A DNA stretch of 63,855 nucleotides, the filler included, from the NCBI GenBank assembly GCA_964501035.1. It is 4 parts of 4 records of this genome, joined end to end, with 100 filler letters (N's around TTAATTAATTAA, not from the genome) between each part and the next. Parts side by side here need not be neighbours in the genome. Positions count along the whole stretch, not along the records: positions 1 to 19,085 come from CAZCRK010000027.1; 3 more parts are not named here. One strand, 5' to 3'. Position numbers and translations under genes: made by a program. This document shows, piece by piece, positions 354-61,717 of this stretch. Position 1 is the stretch's first letter. Every line of letters starts with the position of its first letter. The notes beneath the pieces were generated by a model. That model saw only the letters and a program-made list of their open reading frames with translations, did not search any database and had not been told where the DNA came from.

Positions 354-1865
354 ATGAAAACTATTTTAACAAGTATGATTATGATTACAATGATATGTGC
401 ATCCACATATAATGTGGGTGATACGATGTCAGAAAGTCATCAAAATTTAAGTTTTGATGTTTGTTATGGAAATTATGAAGGCGGTGATGAAGCATCATTT
501 GCAGATTTTAATGGAGAACTAAACGGTGGGAACTACAAAGTGACTTGGGTAGAATTATCTGCGAGTTGGTGTGAACCATGTTGGGATGCAATACCAATAA
601 TTGATAATATTACTGCACAGTGGGAAGATGATGAAAATGTGGCTATGGTAACAGTATTAGATGACATTGGTCAGCCATATTCGTGTACACAATGGGGTAA
701 TGCTGGCACAGTTGGCATTCCAATCATTCTTGATGATGGAAGTGGCTACACAATTTTTAATTGGTTTGAATCACAATCTGCGTTTCCTAGCAATGCATTT
801 ATTGACCATACGATGACTGTACATTATAAAACAAATAATATTGGTACTTACATAGCAAACCTAAAAATTCAAGAAATGATTGATGACTGTGACGAAGCAG
901 GTTTATGCAATAACGTAGATATGGATAGTGATGGAATTGAAAATGATGTTGATAATTGTCCCAATGATGCAAATACAGATCAAGCTGACCTTGATGAAGA
1001 TGGGTTAGGGGATGTTTGCGATGATTGTCATAATTTAAATGGTGACTTGAATGATGATACTATTCTAAATATTTTAGATATTGTAAGTGTAGTAAATATG
1101 ATTTTATCAGGTGGTGCAAATTCACCTGATTTTAATGATTGTCAAAAAGAAGATGCAGATATGGACAATAATAGTATTGTTAATATTTTAGATGTGATAC
1201 AAATTATTAACCAAATTGTTGGTATGTCACGTGTTGCAGAATTAACAGATTTAAATGCAGATGTTATATTCCACCAAGCAGGTGATGACCTAGTTGTTTC
1301 CATTGAATCAAACTCTAATATAGCAGGTATTGAATTTGCACTATTAGGTGATTATGCAAATACATTTGATTTAAAAGATAACTCACATATTACTGTTGAA
1401 TCTTCATCTATTAATGGTATTACTCACATGCTAGCATATTCTTTGTTTAATCAAGCATTTGATAGCCATACAGTTGAGTTTACAATAAAAGGCGCAGGAT
1501 ACTTAAATAGTGAAGATATAATGGTTACCGTGGGTTCACAAAATGGTGACGCATTTACACTTACACTTGCTGATGAAGATGGTATATATCAAAATGGACC
1601 TGATACATTTACACTATCAAGTGTGTATCCAAATCCATTTAATCCATCAACAGAGATAGAATTTACACTTCCATCTGATGGATATGTACGATTATCAGCA
1701 TATAATGTAATGGGACAAGAGATGTCTGTTATTTATGATGGTTTCCAATCCATTGGAACCCATTCATATACATGGAATGCATCTGAATTACCATCCGGAG
1801 TATATTATATTCGACTCTTATCTGGTAACCGAGTTGAAACTACTAAAGCTATTTTAATGAAATAA
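354..1865 (+). CDS. Secreted thioredoxin-fold (TlpA/AhpC-TSA-like, WCEPC) protein with TSP3-like repeats, dockerin, cohesin-like domain and C-terminal sorting domain
   Basis: Signal peptide; SASWCEPCW; AFP cis-Pro region; DxDxDG..NCP...DxDxDGLGDVCD repeats; GDLNDDTILNILDIV / ADMDNNSIVNILDVI dockerin pair; YPNPFNPSTEI...SGVYYIRL...KAILMK. Confidence 0.85.
   Translation: MKTILTSMIMITMICASTYNVGDTMSESHQNLSFDVCYGNYEGGDEASFADFNGELNGGNYKVTWVELSASWCEPCWDAIPIIDNITAQWEDDENVAMVTVLDDIGQPYSCTQWGNAGTVGIPIILDDGSGYTIFNWFESQSAFPSNAFIDHTMTVHYKTNNIGTYIANLKIQEMIDDCDEAGLCNNVDMDSDGIENDVDNCPNDANTDQADLDEDGLGDVCDDCHNLNGDLNDDTILNILDIVSVVNMILSGGANSPDFNDCQKEDADMDNNSIVNILDVIQIINQIVGMSRVAELTDLNADVIFHQAGDDLVVSIESNSNIAGIEFALLGDYANTFDLKDNSHITVESSSINGITHMLAYSLFNQAFDSHTVEFTIKGAGYLNSEDIMVTVGSQNGDAFTLTLADEDGIYQNGPDTFTLSSVYPNPFNPSTEIEFTLPSDGYVRLSAYNVMGQEMSVIYDGFQSIGTHSYTWNASELPSGVYYIRLLSGNRVETTKAILMK
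1179..1861 (+). repeat. 683-bp direct repeat, copy 1 (3' part of gene 354-1865)
   Basis: Appears identical by eye to 2764-3446 (offset 1585); the encoded peptides are identical. Confidence 0.9.
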
Positions 1866-1896: not shown

Positions 1897-3450
1897 ATGA
1901 ATAGACTATTTTTAATATTATTATTAGTTTGTGGGCTTTCAGCTCAAACCTATGATGTGGGCGAAATCATAAGTCAAAACCATCAAAATACTGAGTTTGA
2001 TGTTTGCTATGGTGAATATGAAAGTGATGTATTTCATTTAGCAGATTTAAATGGAGCAACAAATGGTGGTAATTACCATATCATATTTATTGATATGGCA
2101 GCTACATGGTGAGGCCCTTGCTATCAGGACATCAGTTCGATGGACTCACATGTAGAACACTGGCAAGATAATGAAAATGTACAATTTTTTGTAGCTCTAG
2201 CAGATATTGGTCAACCATATACTTGTCAACAATGGGGGGATGCAGGTCAAGTTGGTTCACCACTTATTTTAGATGATGATCCAGGTACGTTTTTTAACTG
2301 GGTACATGACTCTTGGAATGCATATCCAACTTATGCTGTAATTGACCACAATATGCGAGTGAGAGTTAAGCCTTGGACATATACAAGTAATTCAAATACC
2401 AATGAGTGCTATAATATTAATGGCTGCTCTGGTGGAAATACTGACAATTTCATTCAACAACTTGTTGATGAATGTGAAGCAGAAGGGCTCTGTGGAAATG
2501 TTGATAGTGACCAAGATGGTTTGAATGCTGATGAAGATAATTGTCCTCAGGATTATAATCCCGGTCAAGAAGATGATGATTTGGATGGTATTGGAGATGT
2601 ATGTGATGATTGCCACAACATGAATGGTGACTTAAATGATGATACTATTCTAAATATTTTAGATATTGTGAGTGTTGTTAATATGATTTTGACTGGCGGT
2701 TCAAATTCACCTGATTTTAATGATTGTGAAAAGGGTGATGCAGACTATGATGGAAATGGAATGGTTAATATTTTAGATGTGATACAAATTATTAACCAAA
2801 TTGTTGGTATGTCACGTGTTGCAGAATTAACAGATTTAAATGCAGATGTTATATTCCACCAAGCAGGTGATGACCTAGTTGTTTCCATTGAATCAAACTC
2901 TAATATAGCAGGTATTGAATTTGCACTATTAGGTGATTATGCAAATACATTTGATTTAAAAGATAACTCACATATTACTGTTGAATCTTCATCTATTAAT
3001 GGTATTACTCACATGCTAGCATATTCTTTGTTTAATCAAGCATTTGATAGCCATACAGTTGAGTTTACAATAAAAGGCGCAGGATACTTAAATAGTGAAG
3101 ATATAATGGTTACCGTGGGTTCACAAAATGGTGACGCATTTACACTTACACTTGCTGATGAAGATGGTATATATCAAAATGGACCTGATACATTTACACT
3201 ATCAAGTGTGTATCCAAATCCATTTAATCCATCAACAGAGATAGAATTTACACTTCCATCTGATGGATATGTACGATTATCAGCATATAATGTAATGGGA
3301 CAAGAGATGTCTGTTATTTATGATGGTTTCCAATCCATTGGAACCCATTCATATACATGGAATGCATCTGAATTACCATCCGGAGTATATTATATTCGAC
3401 TCTTATCTGGTAACCGAGTTGAAACTACTAAAGCTATTTTAATGAAGTAG
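1897..3450 (+). CDS. Predicted selenoprotein: paralog of 354-1865 with a WUGPC motif (TGA 2110-2112 read as Sec72), 517 aa
   Basis: ORFs 1897-2112 and 2140-3450 are in the same frame, separated only by the TGA. Readthrough gives MAATW-U-GPCYQDISSM, colinear with LSASW-C-EPCWDAIPII of the upstream paralog. SD AAGGAG and signal peptide at 1897. Confidence 0.85.
2113..2155 (+). promoter_or_regulatory. Candidate bacterial SECIS element
   Basis: Stem CATC(2130-2133)/GATG(2139-2142) with loop AGTTC (G at loop position 2), loop starting about 21 nt after the TGA; extended by AG/CT and CTAT/GTAG pairings. Confidence 0.5.
2764..3446 (+). repeat. 683-bp direct repeat, copy 2 (3' part of gene 1897-3450)
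   Basis: Appears identical to 1179-1861. Confidence 0.9.
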
Positions 3451-3471
3451 ATGTTTTATGTACTTGATAGT

Positions 3472-3501
3472 AAAAAAGGGAGATGACCATCTCCCTTTTT
3501 T
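3472..3501. terminator. Rho-independent terminator
   Basis: AAAAAAGGGAGATG-AC-CATCTCCCTTTTTT. Confidence 0.85.
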
Positions 3502-3571
3502 ATTATATCAATCTTTTGGAAACATAAAATAAGGTTTTTTGTTAGAGTATAATGAAGATTAAATTTCGAAT

Positions 3572-4408
3572 ATGATTCATCGGTTATTCATAGTATTCTT
3601 ATTAGTATTTTCATCTGTTTTATTTGCTCAATTTGAGAACGTATCTGTTCAATTAGATTTGAAGCAAATTCGAGAAAATGATAAGTATATTATTAATACA
3701 TTTGCTGATGAAGTACAGAACTACATTTTGACAAGTCCATTTGCACCAGGTGCAGAAGATTTAGGTATCAACATAAATATACATTTTGTTTTTGAATCCA
3801 TTGAAGATAATAGTAATAACCATATTGTAAATGCCCAAGTATTAATTACTAACAGTTTAGATTTAAATTATTTTACAAAAGGGGTTGAATTCCCATTTTC
3901 AAATGGGCAATCGATGTTTTATTCAATAACATTTGATCCCATAGCATCTTTTTTGGATTATTATGCTTATATATTCATTGCAAATGAATTAGATACATAT
4001 GATTATTTAGGTGGTGAACAGTACTTTTCATTAGCAGAAGAAATCGCTTCTGAAGGCAAAAGTTCTACATATTCACGAAGTTGGGATGACCGTTGGAAAA
4101 AAGTAAGAAAAATTCGCAGAAATCAACATCTACGAAGCGTTAAATATCATTACTTTACTGCTTTGGACAATTACACTTCTGAAAATATGAATATGGAAAA
4201 TTTTCAAGCATCAATCGATGAGTTTTACATCAGTTTACAAGATATTGATAACGATTATGGTCAAGATAGATTTACGATATATTTTTTAAAAGCATATACT
4301 TCAGAAGTTTGTGAGTTAGTTTCCTTTATAAACAGAAAAGAAATTTTTCATTTTTTAATTAATTTTGATGAAGAAAATAAATCTATTTATCAAAAGTATT
4401 TAAAATAG
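3572..4408 (+). CDS. DUF4835 family protein (PorD-like, T9SS-associated)
   Basis: Signal peptide; motif IASFLDYYAYIFIANELDTYDYLGGEQYF..A..I followed by W..RW, resembling DUF4835. Confidence 0.6.
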   Translation: MIHRLFIVFLLVFSSVLFAQFENVSVQLDLKQIRENDKYIINTFADEVQNYILTSPFAPGAEDLGININIHFVFESIEDNSNNHIVNAQVLITNSLDLNYFTKGVEFPFSNGQSMFYSITFDPIASFLDYYAYIFIANELDTYDYLGGEQYFSLAEEIASEGKSSTYSRSWDDRWKKVRKIRRNQHLRSVKYHYFTALDNYTSENMNMENFQASIDEFYISLQDIDNDYGQDRFTIYFLKAYTSEVCELVSFINRKEIFHFLINFDEENKSIYQKYLK

Positions 4409-4411
4409 GTT

Positions 4412-5614
4412 ATGACCCAAACAATTCGTTTTATACTTCTTTTATTTTTAGTATTTTCTTTTGTGAATTCACAAAAATCTTCCACTGAAATTCAAAAAGA
4501 TATCGACAAGCAAAACAAAGAGTTAAAACAAATTCGGAATGAAATAAACTCGATGGAAAAACAAATTATTTCCAAGACCAAAGAAGCAATTTCAGCAACT
4601 GAGATATTGATTGACATAGAGAATAAAATATCGTTAACCGAAAAGCTTATACGCTCTCTAAATCGCGAAGAAAGATACATATCTGAAAAAATATTCCATA
4701 CAGAAAATAACATAAATGAAAAAGAAAAGTATTTGGATGAACTAAGGAATCAACTCACTAAACGAATGACTCATATTTATAAAGCAGGAAGACCTTCGCC
4801 CTTGCAAACTGTTGTTCTATCTAAAAATTGGAATGAAGCCATTTATAAGGTTAAATATTTAGAAGTTCTTACAGACTATGAAACTAAAATTAGAAGTGAG
4901 ATTAGTAAAATTATAAATGAATTGCAGGATGAAAAACATCAATTAGAAAGTGAGTTAACTCGCAAAACTAATATAAAGAATGAAAAACAAATTGAAAGTT
5001 CTAATTTAGAAAATGACAAAACTACTCGAAAAAAATACATTAGTAAAATAAAAGACCAGAAAACTAAGCTTGAATCAGAAGTTAAACAGAAAAAAGAAAT
5101 GATGGCTCAAATAGAATCACTAATAAATAAGTTATTTTCTGATAAAGAAGCTTCTAAGAAAAGAGAGGAAGAATTAGCACGTATTAGAGCCATACAAAAT
5201 TTAGCAACATCAGGAAACTTTGCTAAAATGAAGGGCAAACTTCCATGGCCTGTTAGTGGAAAAATTATTTCAAAGTTTGGACTACAACGTAATCCTGAAT
5301 TAAAAACTGAAACTGAAAATTCAGGTATTGATATTGAATGTAACGCAGGTAAAAATGTAGTTTCAGTATTAGATGGGGTTGTAAGTACAATTACATTTAT
5401 ACGCGGTTATGGAAACATTATTATTGTTGATCATGGAGGAAGTTATAGTACTGTTTATGCTCACGTAGATGAAATAGTTGTACGTGAGAATGAATATGTG
5501 CAAGCTGGTAAAAATATAGCCCAAATTAGTGGATCAGGTGTATCGTATTTACATTTTGAAGTGTGGGGAAATCAGAAAAAATTAAATCCACAAGTTTGGT
5601 TAACTAGTAAATGA
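4412..5614 (+). CDS. envC: EnvC-like murein hydrolase activator (coiled coil + M23 domain)
   Basis: Long coiled coil, KGKLPWPVSG, GYGNIIIVDHG, LHFEV. Confidence 0.8.
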   Translation: MTQTIRFILLLFLVFSFVNSQKSSTEIQKDIDKQNKELKQIRNEINSMEKQIISKTKEAISATEILIDIENKISLTEKLIRSLNREERYISEKIFHTENNINEKEKYLDELRNQLTKRMTHIYKAGRPSPLQTVVLSKNWNEAIYKVKYLEVLTDYETKIRSEISKIINELQDEKHQLESELTRKTNIKNEKQIESSNLENDKTTRKKYISKIKDQKTKLESEVKQKKEMMAQIESLINKLFSDKEASKKREEELARIRAIQNLATSGNFAKMKGKLPWPVSGKIISKFGLQRNPELKTETENSGIDIECNAGKNVVSVLDGVVSTITFIRGYGNIIIVDHGGSYSTVYAHVDEIVVRENEYVQAGKNIAQISGSGVSYLHFEVWGNQKKLNPQVWLTSK

Positions 5615-19085: not shown

Positions 19086-19185
19086 NNNNNNNNNNNNNNN
19101 NNNNNNNNNNNNNNNNNNNNNNNNNNNNNTTAATTAATTAANNNNNNNNNNNNNNNNNNNNNNNNNNNNNNNNNNNNNNNNNNNN
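19086..19185. other. Artificial contig spacer
   Basis: 100 nt of N with central TTAATTAATTAA (stops in all six frames). Confidence 0.95.
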
Positions 19186-29244: not shown

Positions 29245-29373
29245 GCAATATTTAGGAACATAAACTGTAATATATTGTTACAAATATATTGTGGAATTTT
29301 GTTTGTATTAATGAAAAATACATTTTAAGTTATCACAGGAAAAGTAACCTAATAAATCAAAGGAGTGGTAGAA

Positions 29374-30120
29374 ATGAAAAGAACAACCTTAATAGTATTA
29401 ACAATAGTAGCTTTATCTTTCACTTTTGGTGGACAAGCTAATTTATCTTTAAATACGGCAAATTTGTCAGCAACTGGTTCTGATGTTGTAAGTTTAGCAA
29501 TTGACTCAGATTCTGACGTATTTGGTATTCAGTTTGATGTGAAATACGATGCAAATGCACTTCAACTTACAGAAAATGCAATTTCTTCTACAGTTACCGG
29601 TGTAAATGTATATAGTAAAATTAAAGAAGACGGTCATGCTCGAGTTGTAATGTTTAGTCTTCAAGGCGATAAAATTATTGATATTAATTCTGGAAATATA
29701 GCTAACATCGTAGAGTTTCAGTTTGAATCAGTTGATAATTTTATTGGCACAAGTTCGGTTGAATTAAAAGATATTACTGTAGCTGGAGAACATGGTGAAG
29801 AATTGACTGTTTTATCTTCTTCTTTTGATGTAGATATGTCAGGTGCTTCAACACCAGTTAAAACTGAATTAAAAGGTAACTTTCCAAACCCTTTTAACCC
29901 TACAACACAAATTAACTTCAATTTAAGTCAAAGTGGCGAAGTTTCATTAGTTATTTATGATATAATGGGAAGAGAAGTAGAAACTCTTGTAAATGGTTTC
30001 ATGGATGCTAAATCATATGATATTACTTGGGATGCTTCAAATGTAGCAAGTGGACGATATCTTGCCAAATTAACTGCTCCAGGTTATTCTGATACAATTA
30101 CTATGACATTGCTTAAATAG
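29374..30120 (+). CDS. Secreted cohesin-like domain protein with C-terminal sorting domain
   Basis: Signal peptide; beta-rich domain with VFGIQFDVKYD; NFPNPFNPTTQI...ASGRYLAKL...MTLLK. Confidence 0.7.
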   Translation: MKRTTLIVLTIVALSFTFGGQANLSLNTANLSATGSDVVSLAIDSDSDVFGIQFDVKYDANALQLTENAISSTVTGVNVYSKIKEDGHARVVMFSLQGDKIIDINSGNIANIVEFQFESVDNFIGTSSVELKDITVAGEHGEELTVLSSSFDVDMSGASTPVKTELKGNFPNPFNPTTQINFNLSQSGEVSLVIYDIMGREVETLVNGFMDAKSYDITWDASNVASGRYLAKLTAPGYSDTITMTLLK

Positions 30121-37695: not shown

Positions 37696-37795
37696 NNNNN
37701 NNNNNNNNNNNNNNNNNNNNNNNNNNNNNNNNNNNNNNNTTAATTAATTAANNNNNNNNNNNNNNNNNNNNNNNNNNNNNNNNNNNNNNNNNNNN
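37696..37795. other. Artificial contig spacer
   Basis: N run with TTAATTAATTAA. Confidence 0.95.
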
Positions 37796-56276: not shown

Positions 56277-56376
56277 NNNNNNNNNNNNNNNNNNNNNNNN
56301 NNNNNNNNNNNNNNNNNNNNTTAATTAATTAANNNNNNNNNNNNNNNNNNNNNNNNNNNNNNNNNNNNNNNNNNNN
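56277..56376. other. Artificial contig spacer
   Basis: N run with TTAATTAATTAA. Confidence 0.95.
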
Positions 56377-60144: not shown

Positions 60145-61717
60145 TTATTTTAACAACATCACTCTTTGAGATTTTATAACATTTTCAACTTGAGTTGAAA
60201 TAAAATAAACCCCACTGGATACATTACTTGCATCCCAATTAAAATGATATACATTAGCACTCATATTGCCTTCGGCAATGATTGAAACTAATTCACCCAT
60301 TACATTATATACTTTGATTGATACATCTGAAGCATTATCTAATGTTAACGAAATAGTTGTTGTTGGATTAAATGGATTTGGATACGCAGGTTTAATACTA
60401 AATCCATCTACATGTGTAACATCTAACACTGATGCAGAACCATCTACAGCAATAATTTCATCAGTATTATCAAACGTAAATGATGAAGTTTCAAGTAAAC
60501 CATTCATATTATACACAATGGTCAATCCATCTTTAGAAGCGACAATGTCATTACCAATTACTGATGAAATCAGATTGCCATTAACTTGTAAACCACCAAC
60601 ATTTTGTACATGTAAAGTGTTATTTTCAATTTCACAAGTACCTTCTGCTCGTGCTACATTTCCAAGTATTTCATTCACAATGCTAATAATGTCAACAACA
60701 TTAACAATTGTATCATTATTATAATCTGCTGCAGATAAATTACATTCATCTGTAATTGGATTATTGCCAAGAATATGATTTACTATAGATACTATATCTT
60801 GTACATTTAGAATAGTATCACAATTCACGTCACCTGGTTCGCATTCACAAAGTCCAGTAATCACATTTTCAGCTCCTGGAGTTGGTGTTGTTGAAGCTAC
60901 ATAATCACCATCAACTAAGTTAGCTGTAACATCATCATAATCAAATGAATCATCATATTCATAAGAAATAACAACATTACCATCTGCATCGATAACTGTT
61001 ATGCCATCACCGCCTCCACCTAGTTTTTGATCAACTTGTGGCCAACCATCAGGTTCACCTGTATACCAAGCTACCAAATATCCACCTGCTGGGATAACTG
61101 TACCATCAGCTGCAAATGTGAAATCTCCTGCATCTGTATGATCATCTGAAAATCCCCAACCTGAAATATCTAAATCTTCTGATTCAGGATTGTACAGCTC
61201 GATAAAGTCAACACCTTCGCCATATAGGTCTGCACCACAGCAAAGTTCACTACTTGCTAAAAACTCATTTAAAACTACAGTGTAAACTACTGGGTATTCA
61301 CAAGTACCATCATCCACATTTGCTGTTTCATCATAGTTTGTTGCATCAGGATCCATGCAACCAAATACAAGTCCAGTAATCACATTTTCTTCACCTGGAG
61401 TTGGAGTTGCTGAAGCTACATAACCACCTTCAACTAAGTTAGCTGTAACATCATCATAATCAAATGAATCATCATATTCATAAGNNNNNNNNNNNNNNNN
61501 NNNNNNNNNNNNNNNNNNNNNNNNNNNNNNNNNNNNNNNNNNNNNNNNNNNNNNNNNNNNNNNNNNNNNNNNNNNNNNNNNNNNCTTCACCATAAAGATC
61601 AGAACCACAGCAAAGTTCACTACTTGCTAAAAATTCATTAACTAATAATGTTGGAGTTTGACTGAAAGCAAGTGTTGCAAACAGACAAAATACGAATAAT
61701 CCCATTATTTTTTTCAT
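60145..61717 (-). CDS. Secreted protein: signal peptide, at least two lamin-tail-like domains, GCMDxxAxNY linker, dockerin, C-terminal sorting domain (spans the N gap)
   Basis: ORF 61478-61717 gives the signal and start of repeat 1 (NEFLASSELCCG). ORF 60145-61620 gives the rest: DFIELYNP...DISGW.FSD...TPTPG.EN, GDVNCDTILNVQDIV / ADYNNDTIVNVVDII, YPNPFNP...SGVYF...MLLK. Confidence 0.8.
60852..61640 (-). repeat. Intragenic tandem repeat, 519-nt period
   Basis: 60852-60965 matches 61371-61484, and 61215-61270 matches 61585-61640. Confidence 0.85.

Follow-up and report, generated by a model that had tools for sequence, protein, structure and literature searches.

The window analysed here is a 63,855-nucleotide (nt) stretch of a 1.87-Mb draft genome (95.7% complete), from an organism that is present in seawater metagenomes from several studies and may belong to a SAR406/Marinisomatota-like lineage. 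At its start lie two tandem genes on the plus strand, gene 1 (354..1865) and gene 2 (1897..3450), which encode secreted proteins of the same architecture, with a thioredoxin-fold head, a dockerin and a type IX secretion system (T9SS) sorting domain. The window is made up of four contigs (C27, C29, C30 and C68) with N spacers around a 12-base linker between them (19086-19185, 37696-37795 and 56277-56376). Both genes are found on contig C27 and, because the stretch consists of joined contigs, the gene at 29365-30120, which encodes a small cohesin protein, lies on a different contig from gene 1.

Gene 1, delimited from the open reading frame list and from Pfam and NCBIfam searches, encodes the cysteine form of the protein (503 amino acids, aa), in the order signal peptide, thioredoxin-like domain, TSP3 repeat, dockerin, cohesin-like domain and T9SS type A C-terminal sorting domain (CTD). 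The putative signal peptide (354..404; aa 1-17, MKTILTSMIMITMICAS) was read from the translation, and a hydrophobic start ahead of a conserved YNVG motif is also present in homologues of gene 1. In the thioredoxin-fold domain (405..902), which was located with Pfam, NCBIfam, a homologue alignment and a profile search, the W-C-E-P-C motif occupies aa 72-76 (nt 567-581); W-C/U-x-x-C and P128, a candidate cis-proline, are invariant among 14 sequences, and the head has an additional invariant pair of cysteines in the motifs FDVCYG and QPYSC. The Pfam Thioredoxin match of gene 1 (aa 51-101) reached 15.7 bits against a cut-off of 23.5 and matches to DsbE, ResA and TlpA in NCBIfam were weak, all far under the family cut-offs, while gene 2 scored 28 bits for AhpC-TSA in Pfam (cut-off 26) and the N-terminal profile matched solved thioredoxins and TlpA-like or putative thiol-disulfide oxidoreductases at E-values from 1.9e-5. 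By its CxxC motif, fold and conserved proline, the head of both proteins is assigned to the oxidoreductases of the thioredoxin superfamily.

The head is followed by one probable TSP3 Ca-binding repeat with a Cys-rich linker (903..1028; DxDxDG..NCP..N..Q.D.D.DG.GD.CDDC), for which the Pfam TSP_3 match covers aa 184-210 (nt 903-983; E 0.0013, 18.8 bits, cut-off 25) and a profile of the 24-member family matched the solved structures of COMP and thrombospondin-2 at 1.3e-5 to 5.2e-5. The dockerin (1041..1217), supported by Pfam, the six-frame search and the family profile, has two F-hand Ca loops. Pfam Dockerin_1 matched aa 230-288 at 17.6 bits (cut-off 22.9) in the protein scan, the six-frame search scored gene 1 at 22.9 bits, equal to the cut-off, and gene 2 at 23.5 bits, and the 24-member profile matched solved dockerins at 2.6e-4 to 3e-3. 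Both 12-residue loops can be read in the translation (DLNDDTILNILD and DMDNNSIVNILD), each with D or N at positions 1, 3, 5, 9 and 12, positions that are invariant across the family; the invariant residues of the module in the family are D10, D21, N27, L30, N56, D59, I61 and N65. On the hidden Markov model match and the duplicated F-hand loops and helices, the module is classed as a dockerin. The sorting domain (1623..1853; aa 424-500 of 503) was recognized by both PF18962, Por_Secre_tail (36.6 bits, cut-off 27, E 5.7e-9), and TIGR04183 (39 bits, cut-off 23), and is the sole domain of gene 1 above its Pfam cut-off. The domain list proposed for gene 1 in the initial annotation is thus upheld by Pfam, NCBIfam, the six-frame search, the family profiles and the readable Ca loops, including the dockerin, with both loops intact, and the sorting domain, with both models over cut-off; the TSP3 repeat is probable, and the range that had been given for it (918-1028) is slightly wider than the Pfam match.

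Residues ~293-423 of gene 1 have no Pfam or NCBIfam match. Within this region lies a beta-rich segment (1254..1595; aa ~301-414), characterized by family alignment, AlphaFold2, Foldseek, VIA-align and hhalign. A word-based homologue search with the segment returned only four proteins and an exhaustive HMMER search was therefore needed; among 1.84 billion representatives, it found 29 sequences at E<=0.001; at 1e-10, 12 remained, and at 1e-30 there were none. The segment is a rare domain. Among 26 relatives scanned at E<=0.1, Dockerin_1 was found in 13, Por_Secre_tail in 16 and Cohesin in none, and when the 24 aligned members were scanned again at E<=10, Dockerin_1 was found in 14 and Por_Secre_tail in 15. 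In the family alignment, which shows the conserved motifs LKDNSHI and AYS..N..FDS, a dockerin precedes the segment wherever upstream sequence is present, the exceptions being a DUF1800 protein (P0019) and a short fragment (P0008), and the segment precedes the CTD in every complete protein.

Several lines of evidence relate this segment to cohesins. The AlphaFold2 model is a 10-strand sandwich with a predicted local distance difference test (pLDDT) score of 86.7. In a Foldseek search of the PDB, six of the seven matches at E<=0.001 were cohesin modules and the seventh was a carbohydrate-binding module, with TM scores of only 0.38-0.48. Of the 21 best rows of VIA-align against 48,161 chains, 18 are cohesins of all types (Z 7.0-8.7, 103-110 aligned residues, root-mean-square deviation 2.8-3.4); rank 1 in this list is an unrelated BBSome domain (Z 9.1), and a Z of ~8 is only middling. 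The three best clusters in a language-model-feature search of the Atlas carry Cohesin with scores of 0.86-0.87, which is regarded as a lead only. The strongest evidence was obtained by profile-profile comparison with hhalign, in which the segment family (24 sequences) matched 28 lineage cohesins (27 Pfam-recognized cohesins from related genomes and that of gene 29365-30120) with a probability of 94.9% and a P-value of 4.6e-8 over 97 columns, while the control comparisons of the segment with the CTD and of the cohesins with the CTD gave 1.0% and 4.4%, respectively. By sequence, the family profile matched solved structures in its TSP3 and dockerin parts only, leaving the beta segment unmatched. 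Pfam Cohesin (PF00963) was found in none of the 24 family members at E<=10 and in neither gene 1 nor gene 2 at E<=1, while gene 29365-30120, a positive control for this model, scored 31.8 bits against a cut-off of 24.1. We conclude from the profile comparison and the predicted fold that the segment, with ~115 aa as compared to ~140 aa in cohesins, is a divergent and shortened homologue of these modules, and that it would represent a cohesin-derived domain family not captured by current Pfam models. The likeness to the cohesin of the gene on contig C29 and the cohesin-type fold, a nine-stranded jelly-roll beta-sandwich, both suggested initially, are supported by hhalign and by the fold searches with the AlphaFold2 model, respectively.

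Gene 2, described from Pfam, homologue comparison and seawater contigs, is 73% identical to gene 1 and carries a predicted selenocysteine form of the motif, W-U-G-P-C, with an in-frame TGA at 2110-2112 aligned with the first Cys of the CxxC of gene 1; contigs from all four seawater runs cover these positions without a difference. At least 32 full-length relatives are present in 41 related genomes; among those listed, 24 have one in-frame TGA and eight have none, and each of the eight Cys forms adjoins a TGA form among the matches listed, with twins side by side in eight genomes of the order. When 18 members were examined, the TGA was at the first Cys of W-C-x-x-C in all 12 TGA forms, the remaining six being Cys forms. 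Comparison across homologues also revealed a small hairpin with a GU-containing loop (2130..2142, plus strand), 21-33 nt after the UGA, which resembles a selenocysteine insertion sequence (SECIS). All 12 TGA forms have a hairpin with GU in its loop and a stem of 4 bp or more, located 5-39 nt past the UGA (17-39 nt in 11 of them), while five of the six Cys forms have at most 2 bp in this region, and the corresponding peptide reads I-G-S-M-D in the selenocysteine forms and I-P-x-x-D in the Cys forms. The single-sequence SECIS fold of gene 2 was indistinguishable from shuffled sequences (z 0.32), so that the homologue comparison alone is informative. The genome encodes SelB (375.2 bits, over the cut-off) and tRNA-Sec. 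From the aligned UGA, the hairpin and this machinery, gene 2 is predicted to encode a bacterial selenoprotein. Public gene calls begin the selenocysteine forms just past the UGA (e.g., P0002, 436 aa), and the selenocysteine members are truncated at the UGA in this way.

The twins are separated by 31 nt (1866-1896), in which a small hairpin and an AGGAG site are found, and a GC-rich hairpin with a T-run was read by eye at ~3478-3500, downstream of gene 2. Together, these elements suggest that the twins are transcribed as a unit. A minus-strand hairpin at 1863-1882 was the only entry of the terminator scan, from which the hairpin after gene 2 is absent.

The identity of the twins is distributed very unevenly. 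The final 687 nt of genes 1 and 2 contain two differences, both at the extreme end, with abrupt divergence upstream, and a tract in gene 1 (1179..1861, plus strand), which comprises the cohesin-like domain and CTD as well as the last part of the dockerin, is identical to 2764-3446 of gene 2. In a sister genome, the final 851 nt of the twins are 100% identical. The tract is only 80% identical between the source and sister genomes and yet identical within each genome, which indicates concerted evolution by gene conversion. In one seawater run, a 683-nt contig corresponds exactly to 1179-1861 and has a depth of 16.1, compared to 7.8 and 12.6 for its flanks, as would fit a genuine repeat in two copies better than an artefact of assembly. 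The dockerin, cohesin-like and CTD cassette thus appears to be kept uniform by gene conversion while the redox heads diverge. A locus search with a single protein retrieved only the sister genome and one match limited to the CTD; no source name is available for the sister-genome copies of genes 1 and 2, for the relative of the cohesin-CTD protein or for one Cys-form homologue.

Across the 1.87-Mb genome, a six-frame search identified 67 dockerin matches in ~65 reading frames. Among 57 full dockerins, 45 end no more than 11 aa from the protein C-terminus, which is the classical enzyme layout, and lack a CTD, and in eight cases 172-215 aa of spacer and CTD lie downstream. The cargo scan covered 59 of the 62 other dockerin frames; the gene at 60145-61620, which was scanned separately, and two further frames were left out. 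Peptidases make up 16 of these 59 frames (six C25, four S8, two M14 and one each of M1, M6, C10 and Trypsin_2), and the other cargo includes nucleases, phosphatases, arylsulfotransferases, a peptidyl-arginine deiminase, CotH and a PETase-like hydrolase. Among the 59 dockerin frames, catalytic families of glycoside hydrolases were absent at E<=1e-6, and a single further redox frame, AhpC-TSA plus dockerin, was found. This frame (L121; C73:364-888, extending upstream to about C73:1300) has an in-frame TGA in the context SPL-U-PVC and a terminal dockerin without a CTD, and it probably encodes a second dockerin-bearing selenoprotein.

Cohesins are also more numerous than Pfam indicates. Pfam Cohesin gave only four matches in three reading frames of the genome, as compared to ~17 cohesin-bearing reading frames with a lineage-specific cohesin model. 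Two giant open frames, L174 (C9:2-6577; 2192 aa) and L175 (C55:3304-10923; 2540 aa), contain up to six and four cohesins, respectively, and Pfam recognizes cohesins in only one of them. The small protein encoded at 29365..30120 (plus strand, contig C29) combines a cohesin (Pfam) with a Por_Secre_tail CTD and is a candidate surface socket for dockerins; cohesin frames of the same size occur in relatives, and Pfam Cohesin is present in 39 of the 41 related genomes. Canonical cohesin and dockerin are combined in two tandem adaptor-like genes, L138 and L148 (C52:1115-2305 and 3091-4722), and L139 (C1:66779-70564) encodes a protein with the order cohesin, dockerin, X, CTD.

The census of dockerin, cohesin and CTD proteins that had been called for, which found 38 CTD matches beside the 67 dockerin matches and ~17 cohesin frames, thus supports the original idea of a non-cellulosomal cohesin-dockerin system. 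It does not support the idea that redox enzymes take the place of glycosidases in this system; with 16 of 59 cargo frames encoding peptidases and only one further redox frame, the assembly is a peptidase-rich network with few redox accessories and not a redox-enzyme assembly. Given this mostly-peptidase cargo, the protein encoded by gene 1 is read as a redox accessory rather than as a dedicated redox complex. For the export of such proteins, a match to SprA (TIGR04189) at 361.7 bits, over the cut-off and covering model positions 9-2317 in four pieces, indicates that a T9SS translocon is encoded in the genome.

Binding between the dockerin and its neighbouring cohesin-like domain was modelled with the cohesin-like domain, two Ca ions and the dockerin as input, each with its own family alignment. 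The complex scored 0.42, with the best of three controls at 0.11, which is weak support. A pass at such a score is rated as more often wrong than right unless the interaction is likely beforehand. The runs agreed in at least 100% of contacts and the pLDDT of the partner was at least 74. The mark used here is passed by 116 of 157 solved complexes and by two of 215 mismatched pairs; scores of 0.60 or lower include only 18 of the 157 solved complexes and both of the passing mismatches. The score might also reflect memory of solved cohesin-dockerin complexes and, as there is no contact output and the two domains are adjacent in one chain, binding in trans and packing in cis cannot be distinguished.

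Taken together, there is about an even chance that the gene 1 product is a T9SS-anchored surface thiol oxidoreductase, tied by its dockerin to a cohesin network and carrying a cohesin-derived stalk, which is perhaps also a socket. According to this proposal, the general secretory (Sec) signal would carry the protein to the periplasm, the sorting domain would route it via SprA, the translocon, and an enzyme of the PorU type would leave it tethered to the outer membrane. The cohesin-derived sandwich next to the anchor would then form a membrane-proximal stalk that may still be a socket, the TSP3 repeat would act as a Ca-stiffened linker, and the dockerin, with Ca, would plug into canonical cohesins of the large scaffolds or of the small cohesin-CTD protein. 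Docking of this kind would place the CxxC head, and the UxxC head of the twin, near ~60 dockerin-bearing hydrolases, chiefly cysteine, serine and metallo-peptidases. The head would most likely manage surface thiols, and it could keep the catalytic cysteines of gingipain-like and C10 peptidases reduced, open disulfides in substrates or remove peroxide; the selenocysteine twin may represent a more reactive, oxidation-tolerant version.

A number of observations weigh against this proposal. The Pfam scores of the dockerin, TSP3 and thioredoxin domains of gene 1 are each under their gathering cut-offs, and the PorU-like match (308.8 bits) is under the NCBIfam cut-off of 420. The contigs end inside both giant cohesin proteins, so that any C-terminal anchors would lie beyond the assembled sequence. 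The weak docking signal concerns the dockerin's own neighbouring domain rather than a canonical cohesin. Finally, no extracellular electron donor for a reductase was identified, and a role of the head in keeping peptidase cysteines reduced is pure inference.

An alternative, which we consider unlikely, is that the beta domain plays a structural role in cis, packing on the dockerin or simply holding it up at a distance from the membrane, any socket function having been lost, by analogy with the X module of type II and III X-dockerin pairs or with the Ig-like domain before the T9SS CTD. The composition of the dockerin-CTD proteins fits this alternative. All 10 reading frames with both a dockerin and a CTD have the layout dockerin, 83-135 aa, CTD, with a beta-rich spacer in each, and in five of them (gene 60145, L096, L104, L109 and L142) the gap is filled by a different, shorter family (VGGIQF...SFTFD, ~90 aa). 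Its representative in the window is a protein with the order LTD, dockerin, short beta domain, CTD on contig C68 (60145..61620, minus strand), recognized by Pfam and fold searches, in which the short domain occupies 60379-60657 (minus strand) and a 100-N masked stretch (61485-61584) lies inside the gene. With this domain as query, the short family was found in 14 of the 41 related genomes. In hhalign, it matched the gene 1 segment and the cohesins with probabilities of at most 1%, while three mid-length dockerin-CTD spacers gave 4-21%. The closest matches to the model of the short domain (pLDDT 86.9) were sandwiches of pilin and adhesin type (Z <=6.1), while cohesins reached Z 4.3-4.4. A predicted contact between adjacent domains, as obtained in the docking run, would also be expected from packing in cis. 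On the other hand, the best-kept motifs of the gene 1 segment, LKDNSH and N..FDS, consist of polar loop residues that a passive spacer could dispense with. Furthermore, cohesins come first in the Foldseek list of the short domain, yet at E-values of 3.7e-3 or worse, and as they top this weak list the whole spacer class may descend from sockets. The fold searches point in different directions on whether this domain of gene 60145 is cohesin-like, as the initial annotation had counted it.

Self-polymerisation, in which the dockerin engages the cohesin-like domain on a second copy of the protein or on the selenocysteine twin and thereby forms Ca-dependent chains or a lattice on the surface, was part of the initial annotation and is judged quite improbable. 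It gains from the homology of the beta domain with cohesins, from the position of this domain beside the dockerin wherever upstream sequence of the family exists, from the identity of the cassette in the twins, which gene conversion has maintained independently in two species, and from the docking score. Polymerisation itself remains a conjecture, with one weakly positive docking run. In addition to the frequent failure of passes at such a score and the ambiguity between trans and cis, the domain is short compared to cohesins and escapes the Pfam model in all 24 members, canonical cohesins are plentiful in the genome, and self-binding is not known in classical scaffoldins with both modules, their dockerins differing in specificity from their own cohesins. 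It would be a long shot that the dockerin, cohesin-like and CTD cassette is a self-linking block that lets T9SS cargo assemble, dependent on Ca, into a lattice at the outer membrane. If true, this lattice would display paired Cys and selenocysteine redox heads among peptidases as a surface "redox-proteolysome", and through gene conversion the plugs and sockets of both twins would stay compatible. A partnerless T9SS-anchored oxidoreductase, in which TSP3 and dockerin are Ca-binding spacers only, is more doubtful still; both modules are under the Pfam cut-offs in gene 1 and the protein, having its own anchor, would remain on the cell even without a dockerin, but the dockerin has both Ca loops and both helices intact, with conservation throughout the family, and the genome invests in ~65 dockerin and ~17 cohesin reading frames.

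The proposal of an anchored oxidoreductase in a cohesin network can be compared with known systems. Adaptor and anchoring scaffoldins with both cohesins and dockerins include CipA, ScaA and ScaB of Clostridia and Ruminococcus. As in these cellulosomal scaffoldins, a cohesin-type jelly-roll and a dockerin with two F-hands are found here in one polypeptide, in a genome rich in enzymes with C-terminal dockerins and in multi-cohesin giants. In contrast to them, the protein belongs to a diderm and has a T9SS sorting domain as its anchor instead of an SLH domain or a sortase signal, its single cohesin relative is shortened and missed by Pfam, it carries an enzyme head, and the cargo is rich in peptidases, with no glycosidase family found among the 59 dockerin frames. 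By analogy, the gene 1 protein may function as an enzyme joined to a small scaffoldin of the anchoring or adaptor type. The T9SS cargo gingipain RgpB has an Ig-like beta-sandwich before its CTD; a beta-sandwich directly upstream of a type A CTD is likewise present here, with the differences that the sandwich is related to cohesins and that a dockerin is always in front of it.

Compared to the TlpA, ResA and DsbE oxidoreductases and their U-x-x-C forms, the head shares W-C/U-x-P-C on a thioredoxin fold behind a signal peptide. It differs in the second invariant pair of cysteines and in scores far under the cut-offs, as well as in its proposed export past the periplasm and its fusion to a dockerin cassette. 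Genes 1 and 2 are the only matches in the genome to NF045500 ("Omp28-related selenoprotein"), of which positions 272-376 of 377 match the TSP3-dockerin part (E 8.6e-14 and 6.4e-15); the tail alone matches, with 51.7 and 55.4 bits against a cut-off of 200, and the selenoprotein head differs.

Outside cellulosomes, the cloacimonadotal "Ca. Stygibacter" has been described to encode dockerin-bearing peptidases, a chitinase and a CTD-bearing 3,755-aa scaffoldin-like protein (PMC8542988), and non-cellulosomal cohesin-dockerin systems have been described in anaerobic methanotrophic (ANME) archaea (PMC9012536). In the excerpts available from these accounts, dockerins are likewise found on peptidases and other non-cellulolytic proteins and occur together with large multi-cohesin proteins (PMC8542988, PMC9012536), and in Stygibacter a T9SS-type CTD likewise provides cell attachment (PMC8542988). 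By comparison, the same excerpts describe neither a dockerin directly before a cohesin-like domain and CTD, nor thioredoxin-fold or selenoprotein cargo, nor concerted evolution of a cassette (PMC8542988, PMC9012536). Term searches of an open-access literature collection returned no paper linking selenoproteins or thioredoxin-like proteins with dockerins.

Cohesin-dockerin assemblies are textbook knowledge in cellulose-degrading Firmicutes and poorly understood elsewhere. A marine bacterium with a small genome, ~65 dockerin frames and a T9SS therefore represents a tractable case for studying such networks beyond cellulolysis. This organism adds a cohesin-derived family fixed between the dockerin and the T9SS anchor, and an anchoring cassette that two paralogues appear to keep identical by gene conversion while their catalytic heads diverge. 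It also adds thioredoxin-fold enzymes, including selenocysteine forms, as proposed components of the network, which would place selenoproteins on the cell surface.

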